64,000 nt of DNA from Deltaproteobacteria bacterium (GCA_016210115.1 JACQUW010000326.1:131-64130), one strand, 5' to 3'; counted from the stretch's first letter, positions 75-42,920 are shown. The notes: a model not told the origin generated them from the letters alone. A program made the numbers and translations.

Positions 75-1055
75 ATGAGAAAAACAATCATTGGCTTCGC
101 GCTTGGCGCCATGCTCTTTGCACTTTGCGTGTCCGCCCACGCGCAGCAGCCGGGGAAGACGCCACGGATAGGTTATTTACAGATCGGCTCTGGACTCGGG
201 CCGGGATCTGAAGCATTCCTCCAAGGCCTGCGCGATCTCGGCTATGTCGAGGGGAGCAACGTCATCATAGAGTACCGGGGAGATCCCCAAAGAAGGGAAG
301 ATCGACTCCCGGAGCTGGCCGCTGATCTGGTCCGTCTCAAAGTGGACGTGATCGTTGCACTGGACCCACCAGCGGCGCGTGCTGCAAGGAACGCAACTAA
401 GACGATCCCCATCGTCATCAGGAGCACGGCAGACCCTGTTCGGGCAGGATTCGTATCCAGCCTTGCACGGCCGGGCGGAAACATCACGGGGATGACCTCG
501 ATCTCCACGGAGTTATATGGCAAGCGTTTGGAGTTGCTCAAAGAGATTATGCTACGACTCTCCCGCGTCGCCGTTATGCGGAATCCGGATCGTGGGGAGG
601 GCGCACACAACTTCAGGGAGATGCAGAATGTAGCCCGAGCGTTGGACCTGCAGCTTCAATCCCTGGAGGTCCGAGATCCAAACGATTTCGAAAATGCATT
701 CAGAGCCGCAGGCAGGGCTCGCGCGCAAGCGCTCATTACCATAAGGACTCCCCTCATCGTTAATCAGCGAAAACAGATTGCCGACTTGGCGGTAAAGAGC
801 CGGTTGCCAGCGATCTATGATGATCGCGCATTTGTAGAATCTGGCGGCCTGATGTCTTACGGTACGGACTTGGCTGATTTGCACCGGCGTGCCGCCATCT
901 ACGTAGACAAAATCCTCAAAGGCGCCAAGCCCGCCGACCTTCCGGTAGAGCAGCCGACGAAATTCGAACTGGTGATCAACCTCAAAACCGCTAAGCAAAT
1001 TGGACTGACGATCCCGCCAAATGTGCTGGCAAGAGCGGATAAGGTCATTAAATAG
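75..1055 (+). CDS. Periplasmic solute-binding protein, ABC_sub_bind (PF04392-like) family
   Basis: ORF 15..1055. Start moved to ATG 75, which has GGAGAAG upstream and gives the signal peptide MRKTIIGFALGAMLFALCVSAHA. Family-typical motifs RIGYLQ and RPGGNITG are present, as is the C-terminus PTKFELVINLKTAKQIGLTIPPNVLARADKVIK. Confidence 0.85.
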   Translation: MRKTIIGFALGAMLFALCVSAHAQQPGKTPRIGYLQIGSGLGPGSEAFLQGLRDLGYVEGSNVIIEYRGDPQRREDRLPELAADLVRLKVDVIVALDPPAARAARNATKTIPIVIRSTADPVRAGFVSSLARPGGNITGMTSISTELYGKRLELLKEIMLRLSRVAVMRNPDRGEGAHNFREMQNVARALDLQLQSLEVRDPNDFENAFRAAGRARAQALITIRTPLIVNQRKQIADLAVKSRLPAIYDDRAFVESGGLMSYGTDLADLHRRAAIYVDKILKGAKPADLPVEQPTKFELVINLKTAKQIGLTIPPNVLARADKVIK

Positions 1056-1560
1056 CAGGGAGCAAGGAGCATGGAGCAGGGGGAAAGAAACAGAATTCAG
1101 AGGTCGGAAATCGGAGGTCAATCTGGCACATGGCGAATGGCGTATGGCAGTAATGGATTCAACTCAGAGGTCAGAGGTCAGCAAAAGCACTCCGCGTAGG
1201 ATATCTGATTTGGGATTTCGGAATGCGGATCCTTCGACTTTTCTCAGGACAGGTTTTGCGTTGAGGAGAAGAACAATGGAACAATGGAAGGAATTTGGCC
1301 ACTCTTGCGGCATTCGGAAATCCGCAATCCCCAATCTCAAATCCGAATGCTACTGAGCCATTTGCTCTTTTCGCTTACCTCATCGGTTCTTCGAGGCGCA
1401 GCCACAAGACAAGCCGCTGAAGATTAGATTCTTACAGGTAAAATGTTGAAGACAATGACTTCAACAAAGTTTTTCGCGCCACAGGACGGCGCTTTGCTCG
1501 AGATGGTTTCTGATTTCGGATTTTCGAATGCGAATTTCGGATTGTGGATGGGGAGAAAGC
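1056..1560. repeat. Intergenic mosaic of short imperfect tandem words
   Basis: Runs include GGAGCA x3-4 (about 1058-1085), CAGAGGTCGGAAATCGGAGGTCA, ATGGCR x4 (1125-1157) and CAGAGGTCAGAGGTCAGC (1165-1182). Further runs are TGATTTGGGATTTCGGAATGCGG (1206-1228), GAACAATGGAACAATGGAAGGAAT and TGATTTCGGATTTTCGAATGCGAATTTCGGATT (1511-1547). Confidence 0.7.
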
Positions 1561-1601
1561 GGGGCAAGAACTGTGAAACAAAATCAGAAGGAGAGTGTGA
1601 T

Positions 1602-3203
1602 ATGAAGCCCAACCAACTGTTTGTAGTCCTGTCCCTCATAGCCCTTGTCTATGCTTCTTTGGGAAGAACACAGGAGCGGGCAACCGAGAAACTCGGGAAG
1701 GTTCACTTTCCAGTCTCCTGCAGTGCTGCGGCACAGAATCAATTCGACCGCGCCGTCGCGCTCTTGCACTCGTTCTCGCTCGATGAGGCGGCCAAGGCGT
1801 TCGCGTCGGTTGCCCAGGCCGATCCCAGCTGCGCGATGGCACACTGGGGCACCGCCGTGACGTTGTTCGGCAACCCGTTCACCTGGCCCTTAAGCGGCAA
1901 AGCGCTGCCCGACGGCTGGGCCGCAGTACAAAAAGCGCAGGCGGCTCAGGCCAAGACCCAGCGCGAGCGCGACTATATTGGTGCGGTCGAGGCGTTCTAC
2001 AAAGACTGGGACAAGGTAGACCACCGTACACGGGCGCTGGCCTACGTGAAGGCGATGGAAGGACTGGCGCAGCGCCATCCTGAAGATACCGAAGCGTCGG
2101 TATTCTATGCGCTGGCGCTCGATGTTACCGCCCTTCCCACCGACAAGACCTATGCCAACCAGTTGAAAGCTGCGAGAATCCTGGAAAAGGTATTCGCCGA
2201 GCAGCCCGACCATCCCGGCGTAGCGCACTACCTGATCCATAGCTACGATTTTCCACCCATTGCGGCACAGGGCCTGAGCGCTGCACGCCGGTACGCCGGC
2301 ATCGCCCCTTCCGCTCCGCACGCCCTGCATATGCCGTCGCACATCTTCACCCGGCGGGGACTGTGGGAGGAATCCATCGAGACGAATCGGCGCTCCGCCG
2401 CGGCGTCAAAAAACCATTTCGACAGCCTGCACGCCATGGATTACCTGGAGTACGCCTATCTGCAGAGCTCGCGGGACCGCGAAGCCAAGCGCGTGCTGGA
2501 CAAGATCAACGCCATCAAGAAAGTAGACCGGGAACATTTCGTCACCGCCTATGCCCTTGCGGCGATACCAGCACGTTACGCGCTTGAACGCGGCCGCTGG
2601 GCGGATGCGGCCGCGCTTTTACCCTACCCAGCCGAGAGGAGTTTCCCATGGGTCAAGTTTCCGCAAAGCATGACCATATTGGTTTATGCTCGCGCGCTGG
2701 GCGCCGCGCGCAGCGGCAACGCTGCCGCAGTGCGCGAGGAGATCGAAAGACTGAAAAGGCTGCGCGAGGCGATGATCGTAGCCAAGATTCCATACTGGGC
2801 ACAACAGACGGATATCCAAATCAAGGTCGCGTCGGCTTGGGCGGCATTTGCGGCGGGAGACAAACAGGAAGCACTTAAGCTCATGCGAGAAGGCGCCGAC
2901 ATGGAGGATGCGAGCGACAAACATCCCGTGACCCCTGGCCACGTCCTGCCGGCGCGTGAGCTACTGGGCGAAATGCTCCTGGAACTCAAGCAGGCCGCAT
3001 TAGCGCTGAAGGAATTCGAGGCGTCGCACAAACTCGAGCCGAACCGCTTCCGCGGCCTCTATGGCGCAGCACGGACGGCTGCGCAGTCGGGCGATATAGC
3101 TAAGGTAAAGACGTATTACGAGAAGCTTGTCGTCCTATCGAAATACGCCGATACCGAAAGGCCGGAACTTAAAGAGGCGAGAGCCTTCTTGTCAAAGAAG
3201 TGA
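1602..3203 (+). CDS. Secreted helical-repeat (TPR-like) protein of unknown function
   Basis: ORF 1443..3203. Start moved to ATG 1602, preceded by AAGGAGAG, giving the signal-like N-terminus MKPNQLFVVLSLIALVYASLG. Conserved-looking motifs are CAMAHWG, HPGVAHYLIHSYD and PHALHMPSHIFTRRGLWEES, and the C-terminal part looks TPR-like. Confidence 0.7.
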   Translation: MKPNQLFVVLSLIALVYASLGRTQERATEKLGKVHFPVSCSAAAQNQFDRAVALLHSFSLDEAAKAFASVAQADPSCAMAHWGTAVTLFGNPFTWPLSGKALPDGWAAVQKAQAAQAKTQRERDYIGAVEAFYKDWDKVDHRTRALAYVKAMEGLAQRHPEDTEASVFYALALDVTALPTDKTYANQLKAARILEKVFAEQPDHPGVAHYLIHSYDFPPIAAQGLSAARRYAGIAPSAPHALHMPSHIFTRRGLWEESIETNRRSAAASKNHFDSLHAMDYLEYAYLQSSRDREAKRVLDKINAIKKVDREHFVTAYALAAIPARYALERGRWADAAALLPYPAERSFPWVKFPQSMTILVYARALGAARSGNAAAVREEIERLKRLREAMIVAKIPYWAQQTDIQIKVASAWAAFAAGDKQEALKLMREGADMEDASDKHPVTPGHVLPARELLGEMLLELKQAALALKEFEASHKLEPNRFRGLYGAARTAAQSGDIAKVKTYYEKLVVLSKYADTERPELKEARAFLSKK

Positions 3204-3411
3204 GCCGATTGAGGCGGCGATCTTGGGTTGAAAGCCGTGAAAAAAACTACCTTCGCTAAGACAGCGAAAACAGGCCGGCCTTAGGATTCCGCGTAACGTG
3301 CTGGTGAGGGCAGCCAGGGTGATCAAATAAGACAACGCAACGGGCAAAGCGTCAAGTGCAAGGCGCAGAAGGCGAGAGGGAGTTAACAATAAAAGGACAG
3401 GAGAATAAAGC

Positions 3412-3860
3412 ATGAGCAGAAGAGGGTTTGTTCTTATCTGGCTGCTGCTTGCTGCCTTTCTGCCTGCTGTTTCTTTAACAGGGGCGCAACAGCCCAAAAA
3501 AATCTGGCGCATCGGTTCTTTCCATGTGGGTTTGGACCACGTCCCTCCTTCGTTCCCTGCTCTTCGCGAGGCCTTAAAGGCTTTAGGATACGAGGAAGGA
3601 AAGAACATCCACCTCGACTGGCGCAATCTGCCCGATGAGGAAGCCGCGCGTCGCTCTTCTCCTATAACCACGACCTTGCCTTCGTCGGCCGAGCCGCCGC
3701 TCCTTATGTGGACAAGATCCTAAAGGGCACCAAGCCAGCGGAGCTTCCCGTGCAACAGCCAAGCAAGTTTGATTTGGTCATCAATCTCAAGACCGCCAAG
3801 CAGATCGGCCTGACGATTCCGCCGAATGTGCTGGCAAGAGCGGACAAGGTCATTAAGTGA
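3412..3860 (+). pseudogene. PF04392-type SBP gene with large internal deletion and frame change
   Basis: The N-terminal roughly 80 codons have a signal peptide plus RIGSFHVGLDHVPP..LKALGYEEGKNIHLDWRNLPDEEAARR. Near 3645 they run into the C-terminal roughly 70 codons in another frame: LFSYNHDLAFVGRAAAPYVDKILKGTKPAELPVQQPSKFDLVINLKTAKQIGLTIPPNVLARADKVIK, stop 3858-3860. About 200 codons of a normal family member are missing. Confidence 0.8.
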
Positions 3861-3960
3861 TAGAAGTCAGAGGTCAGAAGTCTGAGGTCAGCAAAAGCAG
3901 CGCTTGTGATTTCGGATTTCGGAATGCGGCTTTGGAATTTAGGAATGAGAACAAGAAGGT
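3861..3960. repeat. Tandem-word spacer related to 1165-1228
   Basis: TAGAAGTCAGAGGTCAGAAGTCTGAGGTCAGCAAAAGCAG..TGATTTCGGATTTCGGAATGCGGCTTTGGAATTTAGGAATGAG. It shares the GAGGTCAGCAAAAGCA and TGATTTSGGATTTCGGAATGCGG modules with the spacer after the first SBP gene. Confidence 0.75.
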
Positions 3961-3979
3961 GAAATAATAGGTGACGTTT

Positions 3980-5068
3980 ATGCCAAAGAAAATTTTGATC
4001 GTGGATGACGAGCCGTTCAATCTCGACCTTCTGGAGCAGGAGCTTTGTGAGCAGGACTATGAAATCGAAAGGGCTAATGACGGCGTGGAGGCGCTGGAGA
4101 AGGTCCCGACTTTCGAGCCGGACGTCATCCTTCTCGACTATATGATGCCCAAGATGAACGGGCTCGAAGTGGTCCGGCGCCTGAAACAGGAGGAAAAATA
4201 CAGAGGGATCCCGGTGATTTTGCTGACTGCGAAGGCCTCTCAGGAAGACAAGATTAGAGGCCTCGATGCCGGTGCGGACGACTACGTGGTCAAGCCTTTC
4301 GACTCATTCGAGCTTCTTGCCCGGGTTCGCTCGATGCTGCGCATCAAACAGCTGCATGACTCATTGGATGAATGGAATAGGAATTTGAATGAGAAGGTAA
4401 ATCAGCAGGTAACCGAGATCGAGCGGATGGGCCGCCTCAAGCGCTACCTCTCTCCGCAGATCGCCGAGGTGATCCTGAAGAGCGACGACGATGCCCTTTT
4501 TAAGACTCACCGGCGCGAGATTACCGTGGTGTTTTTGGACCTGCGCGGTTTTACCGCATTCTCCGACAGCGCCGAGCCCGAAGAGGTCATCGACCTGCTC
4601 CGAAGCTATCACGCTGAGATGGGAACCCTGATCTTCAAGTTTGAAGGAACAGTGGAACATTTTGCCGGCGATGGGGTCATGGTCTTCTTTAACGACCCGA
4701 TTCCTTGCGATGACCACACGGAAAAGGCGGTCCGTATGGCTTCCGAGATGCGCGCGAGAGTCAAGGAGATCCGCGCCGGCTGGCTCAAGAAGGGTTATGA
4801 GCTCGATTTGGGGGTGGGCGTGGCGCGCGGCTATGCGACGCTCGGCAACATTGGGTTCGAAGGCCGAAGGGACTATGGGGCCGTGGGCAATGTGACTAAC
4901 CTGGCCGCGCGGCTCTGTGATGAGGCAAAAGGAGGCCAGATCCTCATCTCGCAGCGGGCCCTCGCCTCGGTCGAAGCATTGGTGGAGGTTGAGCCGATCG
5001 GCGAGCTTTCTTTAAAGGGATTTCACCGGGCTGTTCCGGCGTATAACGTGCTCGCGCTGAAATCGTAA
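3980..5068 (+). CDS. Response-regulator receiver domain fused to class III adenylate/guanylate cyclase domain
   Basis: The REC domain shows KILIVDDEP, DVILLDYMMPKMNG, LLTAK and DDYVVKPF. A coiled linker follows, then the cyclase domain (ITVVFLDLRGFTAFS, FAGDGVMVFFNDP, GNVTNLAARL). The ORF begins at GTG 3971; ATG 3980 is preferred. Confidence 0.9.
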   Translation: MPKKILIVDDEPFNLDLLEQELCEQDYEIERANDGVEALEKVPTFEPDVILLDYMMPKMNGLEVVRRLKQEEKYRGIPVILLTAKASQEDKIRGLDAGADDYVVKPFDSFELLARVRSMLRIKQLHDSLDEWNRNLNEKVNQQVTEIERMGRLKRYLSPQIAEVILKSDDDALFKTHRREITVVFLDLRGFTAFSDSAEPEEVIDLLRSYHAEMGTLIFKFEGTVEHFAGDGVMVFFNDPIPCDDHTEKAVRMASEMRARVKEIRAGWLKKGYELDLGVGVARGYATLGNIGFEGRRDYGAVGNVTNLAARLCDEAKGGQILISQRALASVEALVEVEPIGELSLKGFHRAVPAYNVLALKS

Positions 5069-5087: not shown

Positions 5088-5888
5088 TCAGAGGCGCAAG
5101 AAATCGCCGTCCTTCAAAACCATCAGCCGCTGGCCTTTGATCTTCTTCAGATCCCTAATGATCTCCTCACGATAGATCGGCTTCAGATGGGTTGCCAGAA
5201 ACGGAGTCGAGGGTCTTCCGAGCTTACCCGCCTCTTCGGCTAAGCTCTGAGGGGTGTGATGGCCGCTCTTGGTCGCGAGTTCCTGAAGCCGGTTAGGATA
5301 GGAGGTCTCCAGCACGACCGCGCAGAGATTCTTTTTGCGCCGGGCCAGAGACCAAATCTGTGCTGTGGGACCGGTGTCGCCGATGTGGAGCAGGGTCTTG
5401 CCTCGGTTAGTGATGAAAAACCCGGTGCTCGGAATGGAGTGATCCACTCGCACCGCGGTCACCACCGAATCGCCCACGGCCGCCGGTTCTTTTTCTCGTA
5501 GCGCGCCAAAGGACAGTATGGGCCTTGTCTGGTCCTCCCCGGTGATACGGGTAAAATCCGGCCATAGCGTATTGTTGAAAAGAGAGGCTTTTAAACCGGA
5601 GATGACGGGCCGGATTCCCCAGACGTGAATCGTAAACCCGTTGCCGTAGAGATTATCGGCGAGAGAAGCAAGCCCTAAGACATGATCCAAATGGCAATGA
5701 GTGATGAGAATGTTTTTGATCTTTCGCTGTTCGTTCAGGCTCAGCACAGAGGCCGCAGAACCCGCATCGATCAACAAAGAGCCGTTAACAAGATACGATG
5801 AAAGGTTCCGCCCCGGAAGTTGACCCCCGGCGCAACCGAGGACACGGAACTCTATGGTTGCATCCCTCATGCGTTTGCAGTAAATCAT
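5088..5888 (-). CDS. MBL-fold hydrolase resembling class II 3',5'-cyclic-nucleotide phosphodiesterase
   Basis: ILITHCHLDHVLGLASL matches the first nine positions of the class II PDE signature HxHLDH[LIVM]x[GS] as I recall it. The MBL-type layout is present (LIDAGS.., HxHxDH, later H and D). The gene is convergent with the cyclase gene. The start could be ATG 5888 or ATG 5870. Confidence 0.65.
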   Translation of the reverse strand: MIYCKRMRDATIEFRVLGCAGGQLPGRNLSSYLVNGSLLIDAGSAASVLSLNEQRKIKNILITHCHLDHVLGLASLADNLYGNGFTIHVWGIRPVISGLKASLFNNTLWPDFTRITGEDQTRPILSFGALREKEPAAVGDSVVTAVRVDHSIPSTGFFITNRGKTLLHIGDTGPTAQIWSLARRKKNLCAVVLETSYPNRLQELATKSGHHTPQSLAEEAGKLGRPSTPFLATHLKPIYREEIIRDLKKIKGQRLMVLKDGDFLRL

Positions 5889-5939
5889 AACCGCAAAAAA
5901 AATGGAATCTCCAATATCTGTTCAGGCCCTGGAGGTTGA

Positions 5940-6926
5940 ATGACCGCAGTGAAGTTCGCCCTGCTCTTATCGGCCATGCTCTTTTTTTCTTTGACGGCTG
6001 ATCGCGCCAGTCGGGCGGCGAATTCAAATCTACTCGTCGGGGTCCTGGTCCCAGAATACCTTCGTTCGGAGTCCCAGGTGATCAAGGGCCTGAAACAAGG
6101 GCTGGAAGAGGCGGGCTACAAAGAAAAGAAAAATCTCTTCATTGAGATGCGCAACGCCAAGGGCAACCGGGGGGCGTTAGATCCCCTGGCGCGGGAGTTG
6201 TTGAGCAGGAAAGTCGCCGCCATCCTCACCACCGGCACAAGGGCTACGCGAGCGGCCCTGTCGGCATCGGCAAACATACCAGTCGTTTTCTGCCATCCCG
6301 CGGACCCTGTCGCGCTGGGCCTTGTTAAAACGATGGAGCGGCCGGGAGGCAATGCGACCGGGGTGGCCGGCCTGGCTCTCCAGGCAACCCATAAGCGCGT
6401 GGAAGTGCTTCGGACGATTGTTCCCGGCACGCGCCGGGTGTTGATTTTTTACGACGCCAACAATCCCAATTCGCAGGAGAATTTCCGCATAGCTCAGACG
6501 GCGGCCAGCAAACAGGGGCTGCAGGTCTCGCCGCACCCGGTGAAGTCCACGGACGAATTGAAGGTTTCGATGAGCGCGCTTCAGGTTAATGACGGTGATG
6601 TTTTGTTTCAAGTATCCGATGACCTCGTGGATGGACAGGCGGCGTTTATTTTCGAAGAGGCACGAAAAAAGAAATTGCCCACTATTTTTAATGACGAAAT
6701 GTGGGCGATCAACGGCGCTATGCTGGCTTACGGCCCGAGCTATTTTGAAATGGGGCATCAAGCGGCCGGATTAGTGACTAAAATCTCGCGCGGGGAAAAG
6801 CCCGCGGCCCTGCCGGTGGAACAAGTCCGCAAGTTCGACCTGGTGATCAACTATCGAGCGGCCAGGGTAATCGGGCAGGATATTCCAAGAGCGTTAGTGA
6901 AAAAAGCCGACCGGGTTATCTGGTAA
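5940..6926 (+). CDS. Periplasmic solute-binding protein, ABC_sub_bind (PF04392-like) family
   Basis: GGAGG lies upstream of ATG 5940. The signal peptide is MTAVKFALLLSAMLFFSLTA. Family motifs are RPGGNATG and the C-terminus PVEQVRKFDLVINYRAARVIGQDIPRALVKKADRVI. It is a paralog of 75-1055. Confidence 0.85.
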   Translation: MTAVKFALLLSAMLFFSLTADRASRAANSNLLVGVLVPEYLRSESQVIKGLKQGLEEAGYKEKKNLFIEMRNAKGNRGALDPLARELLSRKVAAILTTGTRATRAALSASANIPVVFCHPADPVALGLVKTMERPGGNATGVAGLALQATHKRVEVLRTIVPGTRRVLIFYDANNPNSQENFRIAQTAASKQGLQVSPHPVKSTDELKVSMSALQVNDGDVLFQVSDDLVDGQAAFIFEEARKKKLPTIFNDEMWAINGAMLAYGPSYFEMGHQAAGLVTKISRGEKPAALPVEQVRKFDLVINYRAARVIGQDIPRALVKKADRVIW

Positions 6927-6935
6927 TCGTTTTTT

Positions 6936-9605
6936 ATGGCTGACTTAACCGACACCATCAAGGCCATCCCGCTATTTTCCGAACTGCCCCGCAGTGACGT
7001 CGCCAAGATTCTTGGAAAGCTGGAGGAGATCACCTTCACGGCCGGCACCAGGATTTTCTCCCAAGGCGATCCCGGCGACGCCTTCTATCTCATCCAGTCC
7101 GGTAGCGTCAGCGTCGTCCTGGAGGGTGGGGATGGCAGATCCGAAACTATCGCAGTCCTCGGCCCGCATCACTGGTTTGGCGAAATGGCGCTCCTGTCGG
7201 GCGAGCCTCGATCAGCGACGATCAGGGCCATCAAAGACACCACCGCCTGGAGGCTCAACCGCGACAACTGGGATGAACTTATCGAAGGCCATCCGGGCTG
7301 GCTATTTAAGTTTTGCGCTACGCTCAGCAAGAGGCTAACCCGCATAGAGCACCAATATTCGAAGGGAAGGGAAGCCTTTAACCTCCTGGCGGAGGAATAT
7401 TACTCTTCGCGACCCGCCGAGGAGCAGGCGTTTTTGCGCCGCGCCTCGTTGGTTCAAACGCTGGACGTCCGAGTCGTCAGCTTCCTCTTAAAGACTGACA
7501 AAGGCCAGGAATTCTTGAAGGCGCTCCAAAGCAGCCAACTGCCGATGGTGCGCACCCTGAACGACAGCCGATGCGAGCTCCAGCCTCTTTTCAAAGAATT
7601 CCTGATGGAAAAACTGGTCGTCTTGGAGGGGCCTTTTGCCAAAAGGCAGCTGCACGCCCAGTTGGCCACACTCTACGAATCATTGCAGACTTGGGATCAG
7701 GCTATTCAGCACTATCTGGAGGCTGAAGATTGGGGCGGCGCGTCTCATCTTCTCTTAGCGCACAGAGAGGAGCTTTTACAAAGCTCCGCCTCATTTCTGG
7801 AAAGCGCCCTGAACCGGATGCCGCCGGAGTGCATCTCCGCCGAGCTTCGCCTGGTTCACCTCAAGGCGGACCTGCAAATAAAACTCGGGAACCCCGAGGG
7901 CGCGATCCGAACGTACAAGGAAATCCTCGCTCAGAGAACTTCGGGCATCGTGGGAGCGGAATCGATAACTCGTTATCGCGACATGGCGAACGTCATGGCG
8001 CAAAAAAGGGACTATTCCCAGGCTCTCCAGTGCCTCCGCAGCGCTCTCCGCCTGACGGAGCAGGAAACCGCCAACCTCAGCTGGGAGGCGGCCAAGCCCT
8101 ACCGGGTAAACGGAGAAGCAGAGCCGCCGGTCTTCCAATCGGAAGAAAGCGCGCTGAAGCTGCAGGGACGGCAAACTTTGATCCCTCTGGTTTTCAATTG
8201 GGCGGGCAACGCCTCTCCGAGCAAGTGGTTTGGAGCGATATTGGGTCTTTTGGTTTGGGCCTACTTTTGGTTCTGGACACCGGAGATCGGTCTTGAACCC
8301 TATGCAACTAAACAGCTTGGCGTGCTCTGCCTGACATTGATCTATTGGGTCTTTTGGGTATTTCCGGATTACGGCGTGGCCCTCATTTTCGCGCTGACGC
8401 TCGTGCTCACGAAGCTGGCGCCCGTGGAGACGGTACTGGGTGGATTTGCAAGCACCACCTGGTTCATGACGCTGGGAGTTCTGGGACTGGGCGCGGCAAT
8501 CACGAGCTGCGGGCTTTTCTATCGTTTCTCGCTCCAGTTGGTGCGTTTTTTTCCTCTGACATACTATTGGCAAACGATCGCTCTCGGCATCATGGGCGTC
8601 GTGGTGATGGCCCTGATCCCGCAGCAGAGCGCCCGCACGGCCATCATCAGTCAAATGCTCCAAAATCTCTCCGAGAGTCTCAGCTATAAGACACCTTCGA
8701 AGGCATCCACAGGTCTCTTCGTTGCGAGTTTCCTGGGTCTTGGGCAGCTCGGTTTTCTCTTTCTGACGGGATCCACGACAAGCCTCATAGCCTGGGGATT
8801 GCTTCCCGCGGACGTCCGCGCGCAATTCACCTGGGGCTATTGGTTTCTCGCTGCTCTCCCTCCCACCTTAGTCGTTATCGTCTTTGTCCTCTTAGCGACA
8901 GTTTTTCTTTACCGCCCCGAGACACAGCCTCAGCTCTCCTACAAAATGGTTCAAAATCAGCTCGAGGTCCTTGGAGCGCTCTCTTCAAAGGAATGGATCA
9001 CGCTCGGCGCCCTTTTCTTCACTGTCGGCGGATGGCTGACCTTTTCCTACCACGGCATCGATGGCGCCTGGATCTCACTCATTGGATTCTGCGTTCTCAT
9101 CAACACGGGGGTCTTGGGGTGGGGGCTAGTGAAAAAAGCGATCGATTGGGAATTGCTGCTCTACATGGGCGCCACTTTGGGAATACCCGCCCTGCTGACG
9201 CGAGCGAAAATTGATGAGTGGCTTGTCGGGCTGCTCTCGCCTTTTATCCTTCCCTTTGTCGAATATCCCGCTGTTTCCTTTGTCATCATCTGCCTGATCA
9301 GCTACGCGTTTAAGCTGGTGTTCACAAGCTTTCTAACCGTTGTGACGCTCACCGTCGCCTTGCTTCCGCTCTCCATCGACATGGGGATCAGCCCCTGGAT
9401 CATGGCCATGCTCGTTCTCGTGGGATCGGAGGTCTGGTTTTTTCGGTTTCAAGTAGACTGGCACACGCTCGCTTATTCGACGACTGAAGGCAAAGGCTTC
9501 AGCTATCAGTTCATGAACTGGATCAATCCCGTTTACGCCGTGGCCTACATCCTGGCGCTCCTCGCGTCCATCCCTTATTGGAGATATTTGGGGCTGATGG
9601 GGTAA
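6936..9605 (+). CDS. Fusion protein: cyclic-nucleotide-binding domain, MalT-like helical/TPR region and multi-pass ion-transporter (DASS/ArsB-like) permease domain
   Basis: The N-terminus has a canonical cNMP-binding fold with the phosphate-binding cassette FGEMALLSGEPRSATIRA. The middle region resembles MalT/LuxR-type sensor TPRs (LATLYESLQTWDQAIQHYLEAEDWGGASHLLLAHREELL). The C-terminal roughly 460 aa are very hydrophobic with about 10-12 predicted helices and a two-half organisation reminiscent of DASS/IT-superfamily carriers. Confidence 0.85.
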   Translation: MADLTDTIKAIPLFSELPRSDVAKILGKLEEITFTAGTRIFSQGDPGDAFYLIQSGSVSVVLEGGDGRSETIAVLGPHHWFGEMALLSGEPRSATIRAIKDTTAWRLNRDNWDELIEGHPGWLFKFCATLSKRLTRIEHQYSKGREAFNLLAEEYYSSRPAEEQAFLRRASLVQTLDVRVVSFLLKTDKGQEFLKALQSSQLPMVRTLNDSRCELQPLFKEFLMEKLVVLEGPFAKRQLHAQLATLYESLQTWDQAIQHYLEAEDWGGASHLLLAHREELLQSSASFLESALNRMPPECISAELRLVHLKADLQIKLGNPEGAIRTYKEILAQRTSGIVGAESITRYRDMANVMAQKRDYSQALQCLRSALRLTEQETANLSWEAAKPYRVNGEAEPPVFQSEESALKLQGRQTLIPLVFNWAGNASPSKWFGAILGLLVWAYFWFWTPEIGLEPYATKQLGVLCLTLIYWVFWVFPDYGVALIFALTLVLTKLAPVETVLGGFASTTWFMTLGVLGLGAAITSCGLFYRFSLQLVRFFPLTYYWQTIALGIMGVVVMALIPQQSARTAIISQMLQNLSESLSYKTPSKASTGLFVASFLGLGQLGFLFLTGSTTSLIAWGLLPADVRAQFTWGYWFLAALPPTLVVIVFVLLATVFLYRPETQPQLSYKMVQNQLEVLGALSSKEWITLGALFFTVGGWLTFSYHGIDGAWISLIGFCVLINTGVLGWGLVKKAIDWELLLYMGATLGIPALLTRAKIDEWLVGLLSPFILPFVEYPAVSFVIICLISYAFKLVFTSFLTVVTLTVALLPLSIDMGISPWIMAMLVLVGSEVWFFRFQVDWHTLAYSTTEGKGFSYQFMNWINPVYAVAYILALLASIPYWRYLGLMG

Positions 9606-9638: not shown

Positions 9639-11186
9639 TCAGAGAGGGGCCTTGATGCCATACCGCTTCATCTTTTTAATGAAACCTTGCCGGCTTAAGC
9701 CCAACGCAGCCGCCGCCTGCTGCTGATTATTGCGACTCTGTTCCAGCGCCTCGAGCATCAGACGTTTTTCCAATTCAGCGACGGCCTCTTTCAACGGGCG
9801 TCTTGAGCTCGATATCGACGCGGTTGTCACGCCAAGTCTTCGGACACCCTCAGGTAAATCCGCAGGCGTAATCATTCTCCCAGCAACCGAGAGCACCAAC
9901 CGTTTCATCTCGTTCTCGAGTTCCCTCACATTCCCTGGCCAGGAATACCGCATGAGGGCGCTCATGGCTTCGTGCGTTAAATCCAGGGGTTCCCTGCCGG
10001 CTTCCCGACAGTAACTCGCGAGGAAATAGTTCGTCAAAAGCGGGATATCCTCTCTGATCTCACGAAGCGCCGGCATTTGGATGTGAATTACCTTCAAGCG
10101 ATAGTACAGATCTTCACGAAAAGCGCGCTGCTTGATCTCCGTTTCCAAATCCTTGTTAGTCGCCGATAGAACTCTGACATCCACAGGGATCGATTTCCTC
10201 CCGCCCACGTGCTCGATGATTCTCTCCTGCAAAACCCGCAGCAGCTTGGCTTGCGCTCCGAGACTAAGGTCGCCGACCTCGTCCAGAAACAATGTGCCTC
10301 CATGTGCTGCCTCGAACTTCCCCGTCCGTCTCTCGACGCCGGTTGCCACGCCCCTCTCGATGCCAAACAGCTCGCTTTCCACCAGCGCCTCCGGGAGAGC
10401 GGCGCAATTGAGAGCTACAAACGGCCCCCGGGCCCGCGGGCTCTTGTAGTGAATCGCCTTGGCCGCCAATTCCTTGCCCGTACCGCTCTCCCCGGTAATC
10501 AAGACGTTAACCGAACTGTTACTGATCTGATCGATCACTTTCAGAACCGCCTGGATTTTTTGGCTGGTGCCGATGATGTGTTCAGTAGAAAATCGCCCCT
10601 CAACCTCCTTCCAAAGGTGGCCGATTTGTTCCTGGAGCTGATCTCGATGCCGGCTCATCTCCTCCATCATCTGGGCCGTTTCGATAGCTACGGCGGCTTG
10701 CGCGGCTAGCGCTTTCAGAATCTCTTCGTCTTCATGGCTGAAAACTCCGGTCTTCTTATTTAAAACCTCAAAAGCCCCGATGATTTCCCCTTGATAGTCT
10801 CGCAGCGGGACCGCGAGAAGACTCCGCGTGCGGTAGCCGGTTCGCAGGTCGATCTCGCGATAAAAACGCGGGTCCTGGTGCGCGTCTTCCACGTTAATGG
10901 TCTCGCCCGTCGCGAGCACCGCTCCAGCAATGCCGAAGCGGGCTTCAAACCGCAGGATTCCCTCACTGCCGAGCGCTACCCTGGACGAAAGCTCGTTCTT
11001 TTCCCGATCGAGCAGAAAAAGACTCGCTCGATCCGCTTCCATCAAGTTGGTAGCCTCCTTGGCAATCAAGTCCAACAGAGCCGATAAGTCTCTTTCGGAA
11101 GACATTTTTTGGCAGATATTGAGAATAGGGAAGAGTTTTTCTGCCAAATGGCCTGGTTGGCTCGCAATTGGCTCTCTTGAATCCAT
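9639..11186 (-). CDS. Sigma-54-dependent transcriptional activator with N-terminal GAF domain (GAF, AAA+, Fis-type HTH)
   Basis: Walker A is GESGTGKE. The segment ESELFG..GGTLFLDEVGDL follows, with RVLSATN and a C-terminal HTH (NQQQAAAALGLSRQGFIKKMKRYGI). Start moved to ATG 11186, preceded by GGAGGGGG. The GAFTGA loop reads GVATGV. Confidence 0.9.
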   Translation of the reverse strand: MDSREPIASQPGHLAEKLFPILNICQKMSSERDLSALLDLIAKEATNLMEADRASLFLLDREKNELSSRVALGSEGILRFEARFGIAGAVLATGETINVEDAHQDPRFYREIDLRTGYRTRSLLAVPLRDYQGEIIGAFEVLNKKTGVFSHEDEEILKALAAQAAVAIETAQMMEEMSRHRDQLQEQIGHLWKEVEGRFSTEHIIGTSQKIQAVLKVIDQISNSSVNVLITGESGTGKELAAKAIHYKSPRARGPFVALNCAALPEALVESELFGIERGVATGVERRTGKFEAAHGGTLFLDEVGDLSLGAQAKLLRVLQERIIEHVGGRKSIPVDVRVLSATNKDLETEIKQRAFREDLYYRLKVIHIQMPALREIREDIPLLTNYFLASYCREAGREPLDLTHEAMSALMRYSWPGNVRELENEMKRLVLSVAGRMITPADLPEGVRRLGVTTASISSSRRPLKEAVAELEKRLMLEALEQSRNNQQQAAAALGLSRQGFIKKMKRYGIKAPL

Positions 11187-11273
11187 ACCCCCTCCCGTTT
11201 CTGAGCTTCCATACTCAGAGTTGGTGCCGAGGTGTTTAACAGGTAACGAGATGACCGTCAACAAAGTTCACAT

Positions 11274-13419: not shown

Positions 13420-14199
13420 TTATCCTGCATGTTGATAAAGTTTCTCCACCAAGGGTTGAGTCAATTCTCTAACCGGGCCGTCAAAAAAGATCCGGCCCTC
13501 TTTGAGACCGACGATCCGGTCCGCATACTCTCTGGTCAATTCCAGCGTGTGAAGGCTGACCAGGGCCGTGATTCCGTCCTCCAGGCAGATCCGCTTCAGG
13601 ATGTCCAGAATCACCCGCGACAGTTTAGGGTCGAGGCTGGAAACCGGCTCATCAGCTAGAATGATGGCCGGATCCTGCATCAGCGTCCGCGCAATCGCCA
13701 CTCTCTGCTGCTCTCCTCCGCTTAGCTCGTCGGCCCGCTTGTACGCATGATCCAAAAGCCCCACTCGCTTGAGATTGGCTAGAGCCCGGCCTTTCTCCTC
13801 ACGAGAGAAGCACTTGAGGCAGGTCCTGAAAACCGGCTGGTAACCCAGGCCGCCGGACAGGACATTTTCTATCACGGATAGACGCTTTACGATGTTGAAT
13901 TGTTGGAAAATCATGCCCACCTTGCGACGTAGATGGCGGAGTTCCCTCTGCTTCATCTTGAGGATATCCATTCTCGAACCGTTCGCCTCCAGATCGAAAA
14001 TGGCCTGCGGAATCAGGATCTCACCCGCCGTCGGCTCAACCAGGCGGTTGATGCAGCGTAGCAGCGTCGATTTTCCTGCGCCGCTCAACCCGATGATCCC
14101 GACGAATTCTCCCTGACGGACCTCGAGACTCACCCCTCGCAGGACATGGGTCGAAGCTCCGTAGGATTTATAAAGATCTTTAATTTCCAGAATCGTCAT
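13420..14199 (-). CDS. phnC: Phosphonate/phosphite ABC transporter ATP-binding protein
   Basis: Walker A is GLSGAGKST. The PhnC-typical N-terminus is LYKSYG..VLRGVSLEVRQGEFVGIIGLSGAGKSTLLRCINRLVEPTAGEI. The signature LSGGEQQRVAIAR and Walker B ILADEP are present. The start overlaps the phnD stop (ATGA). Confidence 0.9.
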   Translation of the reverse strand: MTILEIKDLYKSYGASTHVLRGVSLEVRQGEFVGIIGLSGAGKSTLLRCINRLVEPTAGEILIPQAIFDLEANGSRMDILKMKQRELRHLRRKVGMIFQQFNIVKRLSVIENVLSGGLGYQPVFRTCLKCFSREEKGRALANLKRVGLLDHAYKRADELSGGEQQRVAIARTLMQDPAIILADEPVSSLDPKLSRVILDILKRICLEDGITALVSLHTLELTREYADRIVGLKEGRIFFDGPVRELTQPLVEKLYQHAG

Positions 14200-15104
14200 G
14201 GTTTCTTTTTCTGCAATGCTTCCTTGAGATTGATTCCGGCGATCTTGAAAGCCTCCCGGACTGGATCGTAATCCCGGTCTGACGCCGGCATGAATCCATC
14301 GATCTGATAGAGATCTCTCAACATCTTTTTCCCCGCCGGCTCCTGGCCAAGGTCAAGGAAAAGGGCCTCTACTTTACGAACCAGTTCCGGGTCCGTCTTT
14401 TCACTTGCCACCAGATTATCCGCCGGAATCGGCTCGGAGTAGGCGATGGCTCGAATCTTCTGTTGCTCCGCGGGATCCTTCAAGTACTGGATCCAGGCTG
14501 CGTCTTTTCCGTCCGGGAAATTGGCGAAAGTCGCTCCGGCGTCTACCTTGCGATGAAGAACCGCCAGGACCGTGGCATCATGACCTCCTGAGTAAATGAC
14601 GTTCTTAAAGTCCTTTACCGGGTCGATGCCTTTTCCCTTGAACATCTTTCTGGGAAAGACATGGCCGGTCGTAGAGAGCGGGTCCCCAAAGGCAAAGGTC
14701 CGGTTGCGGAGGTCCTCCAGGGTCTTGATGGGACTATCGCTATGAGTGATAATGGCCGCGTAATAATAAGCGGATCCCTTCCGATGAGATTTCAGGATCA
14801 CCTTGACGCCCGCCTCGCTCTTGGCCAGAACATACGAGGCGGGACTAAGAAAAGCGATATCCAGTTTGCTGGAGCGAAGGGCCTCGACCACCCCGGTATA
14901 GTCCGTCGCGACGAAAGGTTGAACATCCATTCCGAGTTTTTTTTGCAGCAGGTCAACGATCGGTTGCGCATTTTGCGCAACCTGTTGTACGTTCTCCGAG
15001 GGGACGAACCCGATCCGGAGTATTCTTGTCGGGCCTTCCGACCTTCCGCACGCCGAGAACCAACACCACAGGATCATGGCTATCCAAAGACTCTTCTGGC
15101 TCAT
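14196..15104 (-). CDS. phnD: Phosphonate/phosphite ABC transporter substrate-binding protein
   Basis: The PhnD-family pattern is LRIGFVPSENVQQ..PIVDLLQKKLGMDVQPFVATDYTGVVEALRSSKLDIAFLSPASYV. The N-terminus is lipoprotein-like (WCWFSACG). Confidence 0.88.
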   Translation of the reverse strand: MSQKSLWIAMILWCWFSACGRSEGPTRILRIGFVPSENVQQVAQNAQPIVDLLQKKLGMDVQPFVATDYTGVVEALRSSKLDIAFLSPASYVLAKSEAGVKVILKSHRKGSAYYYAAIITHSDSPIKTLEDLRNRTFAFGDPLSTTGHVFPRKMFKGKGIDPVKDFKNVIYSGGHDATVLAVLHRKVDAGATFANFPDGKDAAWIQYLKDPAEQQKIRAIAYSEPIPADNLVASEKTDPELVRKVEALFLDLGQEPAGKKMLRDLYQIDGFMPASDRDYDPVREAFKIAGINLKEALQKKKP

Positions 15105-28418: not shown

Positions 28419-29381
28419 CTATCGCCCGGCCTTTCTTGCGCCTTCAACAAACTGGGGATCGGTGAATCGGGACAGATTCATGGAGCGGATCTCATCTTCG
28501 CTTTTTCCCATCATCCGAAAAGCGGATTGCAACACCTTCACGTCCGGAGAAGGGTCCAATTGCAAGTATTGCTTCACGACCAGGTCGTAGGTTTTGTCCA
28601 GGAGATTGGACTCGTCGATCCGCGTGTACTTTTTGATGACCGCCGTGGTCTTTACGCGCTCCGCTTTCATGAACGAAATTGCGGCGACAAATCCCGCGGC
28701 GAACTTGTTCACCATAGCTGGTTTTTCCCGCAGCAGACGCTGCCGGGCGATGACCGCGTTCATGGGAAAGGCGATGTCCAGATTGGCAAAGTTGAGGAAT
28801 TCCTTGAACCCATATTCGATCGCCTTGAAGCTTGCCGGGTCGGCCAGGACGGCCGCATCGATGTGGCCGGTATGGATCGCCGCTAGTATTTCTCCGATTC
28901 CGCCAACCTGAATAATCTGGACCTGATTGGAAGGTATTTTCCATTGGCGCAGCGCATAGCGAAAAGCGAAGTCGTATAAGCCCCCGAATCGAGTGACGCC
29001 GATTTTTTTTCCCGCGAGATCCTGCGGGGTGCGAATATTCACTGAAGTCACAAGCGAGAAGGCGGGCTTCTTGATGGGGATGGCGATCACCCCGATCTCC
29101 GCTTTTTGCTCGATCGCGCTTAAGATGGCAGCGCCCCCCACCATCCCGAAAGCCACTTCACCCGAAAGGATCGCGGCCAAGCCGATGGGACCCGATCGGA
29201 TATAGGCAAGGTCTACATCCAGCCCCTGCCTCTCAAAAAAGCCCCGGTCCACGGCTACCCAGACAGGAGCCTGTGTTGCCGCCAGCGCAGTGTACGCGAC
29301 GTGGATTTTCTCGGCCAAAACGAGCGCCGGATTCGAAAGAATGATGAAAGCAATGAGCTTTAGAATTCCGTTGAATTTCAC
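28419..29381 (-). CDS. Periplasmic SBP, NMT1/SsuA/TauA-like
   Basis: GTG 29381 with GGGGTGG upstream gives the signal peptide VKFNGILKLIAFIILSNPALVLA. The body is paralogous to the SBPs at 41857, 44675 and 62779 (WVAVDRGFFERQGLDVDL..). The ORF extends to 29465. Confidence 0.8.
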   Translation of the reverse strand: MKFNGILKLIAFIILSNPALVLAEKIHVAYTALAATQAPVWVAVDRGFFERQGLDVDLAYIRSGPIGLAAILSGEVAFGMVGGAAILSAIEQKAEIGVIAIPIKKPAFSLVTSVNIRTPQDLAGKKIGVTRFGGLYDFAFRYALRQWKIPSNQVQIIQVGGIGEILAAIHTGHIDAAVLADPASFKAIEYGFKEFLNFANLDIAFPMNAVIARQRLLREKPAMVNKFAAGFVAAISFMKAERVKTTAVIKKYTRIDESNLLDKTYDLVVKQYLQLDPSPDVKVLQSAFRMMGKSEDEIRSMNLSRFTDPQFVEGARKAGR

Positions 29382-29468
29382 AAAACCACCCCGTTGAAAT
29401 TTTCGCTGCCAGCGGACAAACAAATTTGCAGTCCGGCCCGGTTTCTGACGATTCGATTGATACAAGGC

Positions 29469-33959: not shown

Positions 33960-34931
33960 TCAGGTAAGATACCCGTTTTGCCGGTAATATCTCCTGGCGC
34001 CGGCGTGCAGCGGAATTCCAAGCGCCGCGTCCTCCGTATCTCGACACAGCTTTTCCATGTCCAAAGAGCCGCTGTCGACGGGTATGAAATCTCTCCGCCT
34101 GTCGATCGCCTCGCAAATGGAATAGGCAACGCCCTCGTCCAGCCATTTATGCGTGATCAGGGGCCAGCCGCTGAAATCGATCGTCCTCACGTCTCTCGGG
34201 AGACTCTTAAAACGGGTTTTCGGTATGGCGGCGCCTTTAAAACCATACCTTTCCATCTCCCGTATGATCTTGGGTTCAAGCTCTACAAGTTCATAGCCGT
34301 TCGCGAGCGCCTCGTCTAACCATTTGGATATTCCTTCATCGAAAACCGCCCCTACTTGTCTGTTCAGGATGCTTTGCATGCGCCGGGGCGACGAGGGACG
34401 ATCGCATTCCTCTATCTCTCCGCCCCACTGCTTGATCCTTGCCGGAGAAAGCCCATAGAGAGAAAGAATCTTTGACACAGCATAGTAGGTCGCGTTATCA
34501 ACCCCGGCCAATCGAGTCGACACCCTCAGAGGAATCTTCCTGGCCGCGATCTCATAAAGAGACCTGATTTTCAAATCTCTGGAGACAGCAAAGGCAATCC
34601 TGTCCCAGGAGGGAAAACACGCCAGCGCCCGCAGAGGCAGTTTCTGCTTATAAATTCCCTTCCCCCGATACGCCATCGTAGCGATCGCCGACGGATTCAC
34701 GTAGGCGATATCCACGCGCCTCCTCGCGACCTCCAGCGGCGCCCGCATCCCACCCATGAGCCGCCCATTAACGGCCAGGCTCAAGCTCAGAGGCCTGTTG
34801 GCGCGACTGTCTTTTGAAGTGAAGGAGATCTTTAACTCGTCGCCCAAACTTGACATTTGTCTGGCGTACAACTCGGCGGCGATTTCGAGAGCTCCTTTAA
34901 CCCTGATCATGTTCGCTCTTAGTTTAACCAT
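33960..34931 (-). CDS. TAXI/NMT1-like SBP-fold protein without signal peptide
   Basis: Its internal pattern and the C-terminal LHAGARRYYRQNGYL resemble TAXI-type TRAP solute receptors. The N-terminus MVKLRANMIRVKGALEIAAEL is not hydrophobic. Confidence 0.6.
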   Translation of the reverse strand: MVKLRANMIRVKGALEIAAELYARQMSSLGDELKISFTSKDSRANRPLSLSLAVNGRLMGGMRAPLEVARRRVDIAYVNPSAIATMAYRGKGIYKQKLPLRALACFPSWDRIAFAVSRDLKIRSLYEIAARKIPLRVSTRLAGVDNATYYAVSKILSLYGLSPARIKQWGGEIEECDRPSSPRRMQSILNRQVGAVFDEGISKWLDEALANGYELVELEPKIIREMERYGFKGAAIPKTRFKSLPRDVRTIDFSGWPLITHKWLDEGVAYSICEAIDRRRDFIPVDSGSLDMEKLCRDTEDAALGIPLHAGARRYYRQNGYLT

Positions 34932-40721: not shown

Positions 40722-41783
40722 CTATTTTTGCAGGCCGAATAGCGATCGGAAGCGATCCATATGCCCTTTGATGTTCTCTCCTTGCTCCAGCCGGAGCGGC
40801 GTAAGCTTGAGGCGACGCCTATCAAGCTTGGGCGTGAGAGGTTTCAGGTCTGATCTGGAAGGTATCCGCTGCAGCCTCTGAAGCACCTGCTGCCCCTCAC
40901 TCGACAGGACATAATCGATAAGAAGCTTTGCAGCGTTCGGATGTTGCGGTTTTGCCCCCAGACCAATCACCCCGGTCGAGGAAATGATCGGATCCATGGT
41001 GGAGACCCACTCGATGGGGGCTCCTTGCGTCTTCATGAACTCGACGCGATGGACATAAGCGAACGCCATGGGCATTTCGCCCGCGACGACGAGCTGAGAA
41101 AGAAGCGTGTGCCCTTTGCGAAACTGAATATCCTGGCCGGCAAGCCTTTGGAAGTAAGCGAGAGCCTTCTCAGCGCCCCGCCTGTTTTCGAGTCCCAGAT
41201 ACAATTCATAGTCTGCGGGGTCCATTCCGATGTTGCCCTTCCACCTCGGATGGAGAAGATCGTCCCAATCTTTGGGAGCGTCGAGCTCCGAAATGAGTCG
41301 TGTGTTATAGGCGAGCACCGTGATCCTGTCGTCGGTGGACGTCCACAGCCCGTTTTCATCTTTCCAGCCCCGCCCGTAAGCCTTTCGCTCGGGCGAATCG
41401 TACGACTGCAAAAGTCCCATTTTGATCGCCGGATACATATCGACCCCGGTCGCTCTGATGACGTCGTACCCGTAATTTCCAGATCGCGCCTCCGCAAACA
41501 CTCTGTTTAGAAACTTCTCAGTGCTCAACCTGAGTACTTCAACCCTGACAAACGGGTATCTATTTTGGAAATGTTTTGCCAGATCATTGGCTTCGGTGAC
41601 GGTGCTGTACCAAACAACTTTACCCTCGCGCCTTGCCCCCTCTTCCCACGGATTTGAGGCAAACACAGATTGCGAGAAGAAGATTGTCTCAGGCAGAAAA
41701 ATATAAACGAAAAAAAGAACAAGAGCCCCTCGACCGAAAATCGCCGCCTCTGACCTCATCCGTCTTCTGAAAATACAATGCAT
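40722..41783 (-). CDS. Periplasmic SBP, family 1 (iron(III)/polyamine-type, SBP_bac_6-like)
   Basis: It has a hydrophobic N-terminus. The segment EGKVVWYSTVTEANDLAKHFQNRYPFVRVEVLRLST is typical of FbpA/PotD-like binding proteins. Confidence 0.7.
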   Translation of the reverse strand: MHCIFRRRMRSEAAIFGRGALVLFFVYIFLPETIFFSQSVFASNPWEEGARREGKVVWYSTVTEANDLAKHFQNRYPFVRVEVLRLSTEKFLNRVFAEARSGNYGYDVIRATGVDMYPAIKMGLLQSYDSPERKAYGRGWKDENGLWTSTDDRITVLAYNTRLISELDAPKDWDDLLHPRWKGNIGMDPADYELYLGLENRRGAEKALAYFQRLAGQDIQFRKGHTLLSQLVVAGEMPMAFAYVHRVEFMKTQGAPIEWVSTMDPIISSTGVIGLGAKPQHPNAAKLLIDYVLSSEGQQVLQRLQRIPSRSDLKPLTPKLDRRRLKLTPLRLEQGENIKGHMDRFRSLFGLQK

Positions 41784-42828: not shown

Positions 42829-42920
42829 ATAAGTGCCTCGCTTTGTACGACCGTCACGGCCGTCCTTCCGTCTGCCAGTCCACATTATTCAGCTCTGTGC
42901 TTGAGACCGGCGCAGAACTT

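Follow-up and report, generated by a model that had tools for sequence, protein, structure and literature searches.

The 64,000-nt window analysed here (one strand of JACQUW010000326.1, positions 131-64130, assembly GCA_016210115.1, Deltaproteobacteria bacterium) carries two adjacent genes on the plus strand and in the same frame. The first open reading frame (ORF; 5940-6926, 328 aa) encodes a secreted solute-binding protein (SBP) of the PF04392 family, here named SBP2, and the second (6936-9605, 889 aa) encodes a permease in which a cyclic-nucleotide-binding (cNMP-binding) domain, a MalT-like winged-helix and TPR region and a DASS membrane domain are joined (architecture cNMP-WHD/TPR-DASS, according to Pfam and NCBI family models and to AlphaFold2). 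We propose that the two proteins constitute a single uptake system, a cyclic AMP (cAMP)-gated, SBP-assisted DASS elevator carrier, and we give this reading a probability of about 0.5. There is strong support for a functional coupling of the two genes; from the genomic evidence we further infer a contact between SBP and carrier, the direction of transport, an effect of cAMP and a type of substrate.

Conservation of the junction between the SBP2 and permease genes

The layout given in the original prediction is exact: the TAA stop codon of SBP2 (6924-6926) is separated from the permease ATG by a spacer of 9 nt (6927-6935, plus strand, TCGTTTTTT). A Shine-Dalgarno sequence, GGAGG (5931-5935, plus strand), can be read 4 nt 5' of the SBP2 ATG, and none comparable precedes the permease start within the 9-nt spacer. 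At the related loci described below, start codons and spacer are conserved, and the spacers show no conserved hairpin and usually no Shine-Dalgarno sequence. A strong Shine-Dalgarno sequence before the SBP gene together with none in the spacer is consistent with translationally coupled genes and an excess of SBP. The co-transcription supposed from the short gap is plausible, either as such or as translational coupling. A weak hairpin followed by a T-run (ACCGGGTTATCTGGT, 6910-6935), which overlaps the SBP2 stop codon and the spacer, was considered as an intercistronic attenuator and rejected, since terminator-like hits are about as frequent as chance predicts (12, against 9.8 expected) and other loci do not share the element.

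Conserved adjacency in relatives had been set in advance as a test of the pairing, its absence counting as refutation, and the adjacency is clearly conserved. Scanning one genome per species yielded 58 permease loci, mostly from Candidatus Binatia (loci are designated below by L and a number), and adjacency was counted over the 44 loci that have a complete permease N-terminus and at least 1 kb of upstream sequence. In 36 of these 44 loci the permease gene is preceded on its own strand by an SBP2-type orthologue that ends less than 400 nt away, with a median gap of 12 nt and a gap of 1-19 nt in 30 of the 36. This upstream SBP is always of the SBP2 type (43-59% identical to SBP2 of the window versus 26-38% to SBP1, its paralogue in the window). 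The junction was also seen on three truncated contigs, and in two loci the SBP gene is convergent with the permease and downstream of it. Reciprocally, all five SBP2-type genes looked up from the SBP search are followed by a cNMP-DASS gene at 3-14 nt, and none of the five adjoins an ABC component.

Other neighbours of the permease are far less constant. Among the 31 loci with at least 4.5 kb of upstream sequence, SBP2 is found in 26, a cyclase in 10, an SBP1-type gene in seven and a close phosphodiesterase homologue in two, which indicates that the junction has outlived rearrangements that moved everything else. The binomial tail for this adjacency, calculated with shared descent ignored, is 2e-18 even for an SBP gene frequency of 20%. 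The distance matrices of SBP and permease are correlated (r = 0.90, n=36) but the cyclase used as a control also gives a high value (r = 0.77), so that the correlation reflects co-inheritance and not contact.

Full-length permease homologues number in the hundreds; the best 120 are all full-length, 64-70% identical and labelled mostly as Candidatus Binatia or 'Deltaproteobacteria' metagenome-assembled genomes (MAGs). Some orthologues are interrupted. The permease of L143 (7038-9711) is divided into two genes, a cNMP-WHD gene (342 aa) and a DASS gene (540 aa), by a true split or by an assembly frameshift, and in-frame stop codons occur in L001 (one, at codon 412) and L042 (five, codons 234-293), which are pseudogenes or contain assembly errors.

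Protein domains, signalling cassette and proposed mechanism

The permease begins with a cyclic-nucleotide-binding domain (aa 32-118, 7029-7289, plus strand; PF00027, E 7.5e-26) with an intact phosphate-binding cassette, FGEMALLSGEPRSA, in which G82 and E83 never vary and conservation reaches at least 90% at R92, S93 and A94; this holds even in relatives that are only about 27% identical. An AlphaFold2 model of the protein was built from a 59-sequence alignment (mean predicted local distance difference test score, pLDDT, 80.9), and in Foldseek its N-terminus superposes on the CRP-family domains of CRP and GlxR. The following cytoplasmic region (aa 147-380, 7374-8075, plus strand) is of the MalT-like winged-helix and TPR type; it matches NF003420 MalT (E 2.6e-12) over MalT residues 251-419, and PF25873 WHD_MalT is listed for permease homologues. 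A linker of low confidence or disorder (aa 379-422, pLDDT below 50 at 379-418) leads to the membrane domain.

This membrane domain (aa 430-887, 8223-9596, plus strand) is an elevator domain of the DASS (SLC13) type. The Na_sulph_symp model PF00939 matches it with E 1.1e-33 (117.4 bits for a cut-off of 27), and the stricter TIGR00785 'dass' model gives 130.4 bits, under its cut-off of 198.6, so the permease represents a divergent DASS subfamily. The membrane part of the model aligns with AtDiT2.1, VcINDY and NaCT at target-normalised TM-scores (Foldseek) of 0.84, 0.83 and 0.78, respectively, and both re-entrant hairpins are kept. A profile of the domain favours the exchanger branch (AtDiT1 9e-23, LaINDY 7e-22) over VcINDY (5e-7). 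The hairpin tips carry the motifs IPQQSAR567T and FTSFL, and SEVWFFRFQVDWH lies at the break of transmembrane helix 10, which is marked by an invariant motif, SEVWFFxFQVDWH. Profile alignment to VcINDY shows that the Ser-Asn-Thr (SNT) motifs of Na+-coupled DASS carriers are absent at both tips: the first one of VcINDY (in WISNTATA) stands opposite QQS of IPQQSART and the second (SNV in FTSNVATT) opposite SFL of FTSFL. In LaINDY, Arg159 and His392 replace the two Na+ ions (PMC7553777); the equivalent of Arg159 is invariant in the permease (R567) and the position of His392 is occupied by Val. One permease orthologue shows a weak DctM match. Within the protein, conservation is highest in the membrane domain (mean p-distance 0.26, versus 0.55 for the middle region), which, with a full DASS fold and both hairpins, is as expected of a working carrier.

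SBP2 is a class I periplasmic binding protein whose residues 43-326 match PF04392 ABC_sub_bind (E 2.5e-56, 191.5 bits). Its Sec-type signal peptide, MTAVKFALLLSAMLFFSLTADRASRA, ends directly before ANS, and a crude hydrophobicity test detects signal peptides in 105 of 120 SBP2 orthologues. The closest solved structures are 3lkv (E 7e-35), 6hni and 3lft (range to E 3e-28). These three are the sole characterised members of PF04392 and bind Phe, Tyr or Trp for ABC importers (PMC10443332, PMC6816091, PMC9382623). SBP2 scores below the cut-off of the TrpX equivalog model NF041285 (168.8 versus 390 bits), and with low confidence we would guess an aromatic or heterocyclic organic anion as its substrate. 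The domain assignments made originally for both proteins, a PF04392 SBP and a cNMP-binding permease, are correct.

The pair is often the end of a seven-gene cassette on one strand, complete in L041, L141, L144, L149 and L150, in the order dCache-HAMP-GAF-GAF histidine kinase, REC protein, SBP1-type PF04392 protein, REC-cyclase, metallo-beta-lactamase (MBL)-fold phosphodiesterase, SBP2 and cNMP-WHD/TPR-DASS permease. In the window, the likely source of the cNMP signal is the REC-class III nucleotide cyclase encoded at 3971-5068 (plus strand; Response_reg 1.4e-32, Guanylate_cyc 6.6e-20), whose orthologues upstream of the pair in 10 of the 31 loci are 70-80% identical. Between this gene and SBP2, and divergent from the latter, lies a gene (5088-5888, minus strand; PDEase_II 3.5e-15) for a class II cAMP phosphodiesterase of the MBL fold that has no signal peptide; in L001-L003, L038, L059, L060, L041, L144, L149 and L150, the same gene or one of MBL type is found at this position. 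The SBP1-type paralogue (75-1055, plus strand; PF04392, 4.8e-49) is 35% identical to SBP2. Directly upstream of the REC-cyclase gene, a second SBP1-type gene persists as a remnant with its middle deleted (3430-3857, plus strand), which tblastn with the 75-1055 product matches to aa 4-77 and to aa 257-326 of that protein (the C-terminal 70 aa, 79% identity). Intact SBP1-type copies stand at the position of the remnant in L009, L013, L024, L034, L037, L049, L141, L149 and L150. The simplest reading of the cassette suggests a private signalling path that runs from the kinase through the cyclase and cAMP to the carrier and that the phosphodiesterase would reset. The cNMP regulation put forward in the original prediction is strongly backed by the conserved phosphate-binding cassette and by dedicated genes for a predicted cyclase and a predicted phosphodiesterase.

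Under the proposed mechanism, SBP2 would be exported to the periplasm, capture the solute and pass it on, on the periplasmic side, to an elevator carrier that is a dimer of the DASS type, a role that may be likened to that of DctP, TctC and TAXI proteins for TRAP, TTT and GltS carriers. Through its cytoplasmic module at the N-terminus (cNMP-binding domain and MalT-like WHD/TPR region), carrier activity would depend on cAMP, which the neighbouring REC-cyclase would supply, in many genomes under the control of the dCache histidine kinase and the REC protein, and which the neighbouring phosphodiesterase would remove. The binding protein renders TRAP transport effectively unidirectional; an SBP could give direction and affinity to an exchanger-like carrier.

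Further genes flank this arrangement. A GAF-sigma54 activator gene with AAA+ and HTH_8 domains (9639-11264, minus strand) is convergent with the permease gene and is a possible transcriptional arm of the locus, its membership being uncertain. The same convergent arrangement occurs in L038 (74% identity) and L060, and REC-sigma54 activators are encoded downstream of the permease in L031, L033, L035, L042 and L057; with sigma54 genes in 2 of the 31 loci, they are poorly conserved neighbours. Between the SBP1-type genes, the window encodes a 586-aa protein (1443-3203, plus strand) with an N-terminal hydrophobic segment and only weak C-terminal TPR matches, which is assigned to no family. The window itself opens (1-18) with ...DRVIK and a stop codon, five residues that resemble a PF04392 C-terminus (ADKVIK or ADRVIW), and another SBP gene probably ends there. 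In L059 (18685-20372), L060 (16170-17835) and L011 (3779-5477), a small separate cNMP-binding gene adjoins a gene for an AI-2E-family transporter, and the two may represent a second cAMP-linked membrane transporter in these genomes.

Alternatives to an SBP-dependent carrier

Several observations weigh against an SBP-assisted carrier. The characterised PF04392 proteins serve ABC importers and bind aromatic amino acids (PMC6816091, PMC9382623). This genome is rich in orphan SBP genes, which belong to six families and number at least 12 in the window, so that an SBP gene adjoining a non-partner gene is not unusual in it. In nine loci of one subclade (L008, at 2301-4910 on the minus strand, L014, L016, L021, L043, L044, L046, L047 and L055), the opposite strand carries, about 1.7 kb upstream, a gene for a BPD_transp_1 ABC permease with a long N-terminal extension, and a 5'-nucleotidase/CpdB-like gene (Metallophos and 5_nucleotid_C) is likewise found divergently upstream of the SBP gene; no ATPase gene was seen beside these two. 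SBP-less permeases also exist close to the SBP-linked ones, as one paralogue clade (L011, L017, L032 and L036) and three single loci. The members of this clade have paralogues on the same contig (L032/L033, L036/L042) or in the same MAG (L011/L040, L017/L026) that are SBP-linked or possibly linked, the upstream sequences of L040 and L026 being too short to confirm an SBP. Only 11 otherwise conserved positions differ between SBP-less and linked permeases, and almost no substitution in the membrane domain is distinguishing; the 11 positions form no pattern, and they were rejected as a hint to a docking surface.

The distant relatives point the same way. A representative search over 1.8 billion sequences places the orthologue group of the permease in a single representative at 64% identity, followed by a sharp drop to relatives of about 33% with varied N-terminal extensions. 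This search gave 405 clusters at E <= 1e-30 and, as 8 of the 10 long relatives scanned carry an N-terminal cNMP-binding domain, cNMP-DASS proteins make up a large family. No natural SBP-DASS fusion was found among the 150 best representatives or in the 10 long ones scanned. A PF04392-like neighbour is present in only 3 of 80 distant metagenomic cNMP-DASS loci (L076, L102 and L128), and the idea that cNMP-DASS proteins are generally linked to an SBP was consequently rejected: in most lineages this type of carrier operates with no SBP gene linked to it, and the link is clade-specific with rare independent recurrences. In the three loci, the PF04392-like gene is immediately downstream of the DASS gene. 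Those of L102 (2068-3111) and L128 (3640-4692) encode membrane-anchored, very divergent proteins of about 350 aa (30-33 bits) and follow short cNMP-DASS genes, with a 57-nt gap and a 21-nt overlap, respectively, an arrangement that resembles a separately arisen SBP-DASS association in which the gene order is reversed. These PF04392-like genes beside distant DASS genes count in favour of the pairing. Another distant locus, L099, has an SBP_bac_3 neighbour. The representative search also returned a protein of 1380 aa (P0198) with CstA, cNMP-binding and DASS domains.

The main alternative, which we consider unlikely, is that SBP2 is an orphan SBP feeding a shared ABC importer encoded elsewhere, while the DASS protein acts alone and the adjacency results from a shared or related substrate and from co-regulation. 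This would agree with the ABC operons in which all characterised PF04392 proteins are encoded (PMC9382623, PMC6816091), with the absence of an SBP from most distant cNMP-DASS genes and with the unchanged membrane domain of the SBP-less paralogues. The composition of the window speaks for it as well, as the orphan SBP genes of six Pfam families lie beside catabolic genes and no ABC permease is encoded. Eight of them, all on the minus strand (14196-15104, 28419-29465, 33960-34931, 40722-41783, 41857-42885, 44675-45697, 61423-62463 and 62779-63942), belong to the PhnD-type, NMT1 (four genes), NMT1_3, SBP_bac_6 and TctC families and lie dispersed among genes for UbiD-type decarboxylases, Mo-hydroxylases and hydantoinases. 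The window is thus an extreme case of orphan-SBP genome organisation. Similarly, SBP1-type paralogues stand beside xanthine-dehydrogenase-type genes in L146. The SBP1-type PF04392 expansion is very large, including all of at least 8000 scored candidates at E <= 1e-10. L145 (4321-16766) contains an array of 11 PF04392 genes in 17 kb that ends at a dCache histidine-kinase gene, L148 (827-6038) has four PF04392 genes between the REC and REC-cyclase genes, L141 shows a like pattern beside its cassette, and no membrane transporter genes are interleaved in the arrays of L145 and L148. This background cuts both ways, since it recalls the Bug/TctC expansion and yet shows that partnerless SBP genes are commonplace.

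What argues against a distant ABC importer is first the junction, which is specific to SBP2 orthologues and is kept at 1-19 nt in 30 of 44 genomes despite reshuffled neighbours, unlike the loosely placed orphan SBPs. The reciprocal look-ups agree, with the permease beside five of five SBP2 genes and an ABC component beside none. Partner candidates were sought too. The ABC permease class expected with PF04392 is BPD_transp_2. In 863 kb of related loci, which contain 90 PF04392 ORFs, 63 DASS ORFs and 44 other polytopic ORFs, no PF04392-class ABC permease was recognised among these 44 (10 scanned with Pfam, the rest judged by eye). A hydropathy scan of all ORFs of the window found no ABC permease and no small membrane ORF of the DctQ or TctB kind, the 889-aa DASS protein being the sole polytopic membrane protein in the 64 kb. 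The original statement that no ABC permease or ATPase is nearby therefore stands for the permease and fails for the ATPase: an ABC ATPase gene (13420-14199, minus strand) lies 3.8 kb downstream, and its partner is the PhnD-type SBP at 14196-15104.

A second alternative regards the pair as a sensor, in which loaded SBP2 would dock on a DASS transceptor and the WHD/TPR region would relay the signal, integrated with cAMP, to a partner, for instance the neighbouring sigma54 activator. SBPs are known as co-sensors for kinases and chemoreceptors, the permease has a module for protein interaction and sensing in its MalT-like WHD/TPR region, GAF- or REC-sigma54 activators flank the permease in several loci, the neighbourhood consists entirely of signalling genes, and the canonical SNT motifs for substrate and Na+ are replaced. 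We nevertheless find this improbable, because the strongest conservation falls on the membrane domain, with its complete fold and hairpins, because the sigma54 genes are so seldom retained (2/31) and because no output domain is fused to the permease.

It is more improbable still that SBP2 and the SBP1-type paralogues are co-sensors of the dCache histidine kinase and would control cAMP production instead of delivering a solute. Partnerships of this kind are established (LuxP-LuxQ, TorT-TorS), the gene that separates REC from REC-cyclase is of the SBP1 type, and the kinase gene borders on PF04392 arrays; this reading fits the SBP1-type genes better than SBP2. Against it, the kinase has its own dCache sensor domain, many loci with the SBP2-permease junction intact lack the kinase, as does the window, and the coupling of SBP2 is to the start codon of the permease rather than to the kinase. 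Finally, a fortuitous adjacency or an assembly or annotation artefact, which might be suspected as SBP genes are very frequent here and many records are MAGs, is effectively refuted by the adjacency in 36 of 44 loci, by its recurrence in independent assemblies from many studies with conserved start codons and spacer, and by a binomial tail that stays at or below 2e-18 for SBP frequencies up to 20%.

Comparison with known systems

The SBP-assisted DASS carrier that we propose shares its SBP family with the PF04392 ABC importers (TrpXYZ of streptococci, CD0873 of C. difficile). The SBPs of these are encoded in operons with an ABC permease and an ATPase, whereas SBP2 is coupled to a secondary carrier, and no cognate operon of ABC permease and ATPase was found in the 64 kb or beside the five looked-up SBP2 orthologues. 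The literature searched contains no report of a PF04392 protein paired with a secondary carrier. If the proposal is true, secondary carriers are able to take on a class I SBP from a family associated with ABC systems, which could explain part of the huge orphan PF04392 repertoire in Binatia and related soil bacteria.

The closest solved relatives of the carrier, by sequence and by fold, are the DASS-E exchangers (LaINDY, plant DiT1 and DiT2). Arg159 of LaINDY is shared as R567, and the differences are the Val in place of His392, the altered SNT motifs (QQS and SFL), and the absence from the exchangers of both an N-terminal regulatory module and an SBP. DASS is structurally the best-understood elevator family (VcINDY, LaINDY, NaCT, NaDC, DiT) and, to our knowledge, has hitherto been treated as SBP-independent. 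One review (PMC10710835) notes fusions of cNMP-binding domains to transporters for MFS only and describes UspA fusions as experimentally uncharacterised. The permease resembles the MFS fusions in having a plug-in cNMP-binding regulatory domain on a membrane transport protein; the literature searched holds no description of cNMP-DASS fusion proteins. With its own two-component, cyclase and phosphodiesterase cassette, the cNMP-DASS permease would be a clear, uncharacterised case of carrier control by a second messenger at the protein level.

With TRAP transporters (DctPQM, SiaPQM), the proposed system would have in common SBP-dependent secondary uptake, a DASS-like elevator fold (PMC12344293, PMC9971032) and a periplasmic SBP. 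TRAP transporters are monomeric and need a Q subunit or domain, whereas no small membrane ORF is present here; their SBPs are of the DctP or TAXI families, and they are not cAMP-gated. The large membrane subunits of TTT and DASS both belong to the ion-transporter (IT) superfamily, and in TTT the Bug family of orphan SBPs is massively expanded relative to the membrane components. The PF04392 genes recall this expansion, with the 90 ORFs in 863 kb and the 11 genes in 17 kb of L145. TTT differs in its TctC-family SBP, its small TctB subunit and its TctA carrier, which is not DASS. With an SBP of PF04392, a carrier of PF00939 and no DctQ- or TctB-like ORF in the window, the system is neither TRAP nor TTT proper. 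The link to the ion-transporter superfamily drawn in the original prediction is sound as regards the kinship of DASS with TRAP and TTT membrane components, and TRAP shares the DASS fold (PMC12344293).

The nearest precedent is TAXI-GltS of Bordetella pertussis (BP0403/BP0402), published in 2025; before it, only TRAP and TTT carriers were known to use SBPs (PMC12344293). All SBP-dependent secondary carriers known so far belong to the DASS-like elevator fold class, the use of SBPs has been proposed to be tied to the elevator mechanism, and further classes have been called for (PMC12344293). In both cases, an SBP gene is translationally coupled to a stand-alone elevator carrier whose relatives are mostly SBP-free, and the association is clade-limited and was first inferred from gene context. 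The SBP is a TAXI protein there and a class I PF04392 protein here, and the carrier is GltS (ESS family) there and DASS here. TAXI-GltS has natural fusions, which were not found here among the 150 best representatives; it has no cyclic-nucleotide domain or signalling cassette, and the ligand of BP0403 is known. As TAXI-GltS has since been published, the system originally announced as a third SBP-plus-carrier solution would be the fourth. Tentatively, at a little under even odds, we regard it as the first case of a PF04392 SBP serving a DASS carrier, of a Bug-like repertoire of paralogues feeding one carrier and of a post-translational cAMP switch supplied by a cassette of the same operon. We judge the SBP2-permease pair worth experimental follow-up: an SBP-assisted DASS carrier would directly test the link between elevator mechanism and SBP and would add a further SBP-dependent class beside TRAP, TTT and TAXI-GltS.

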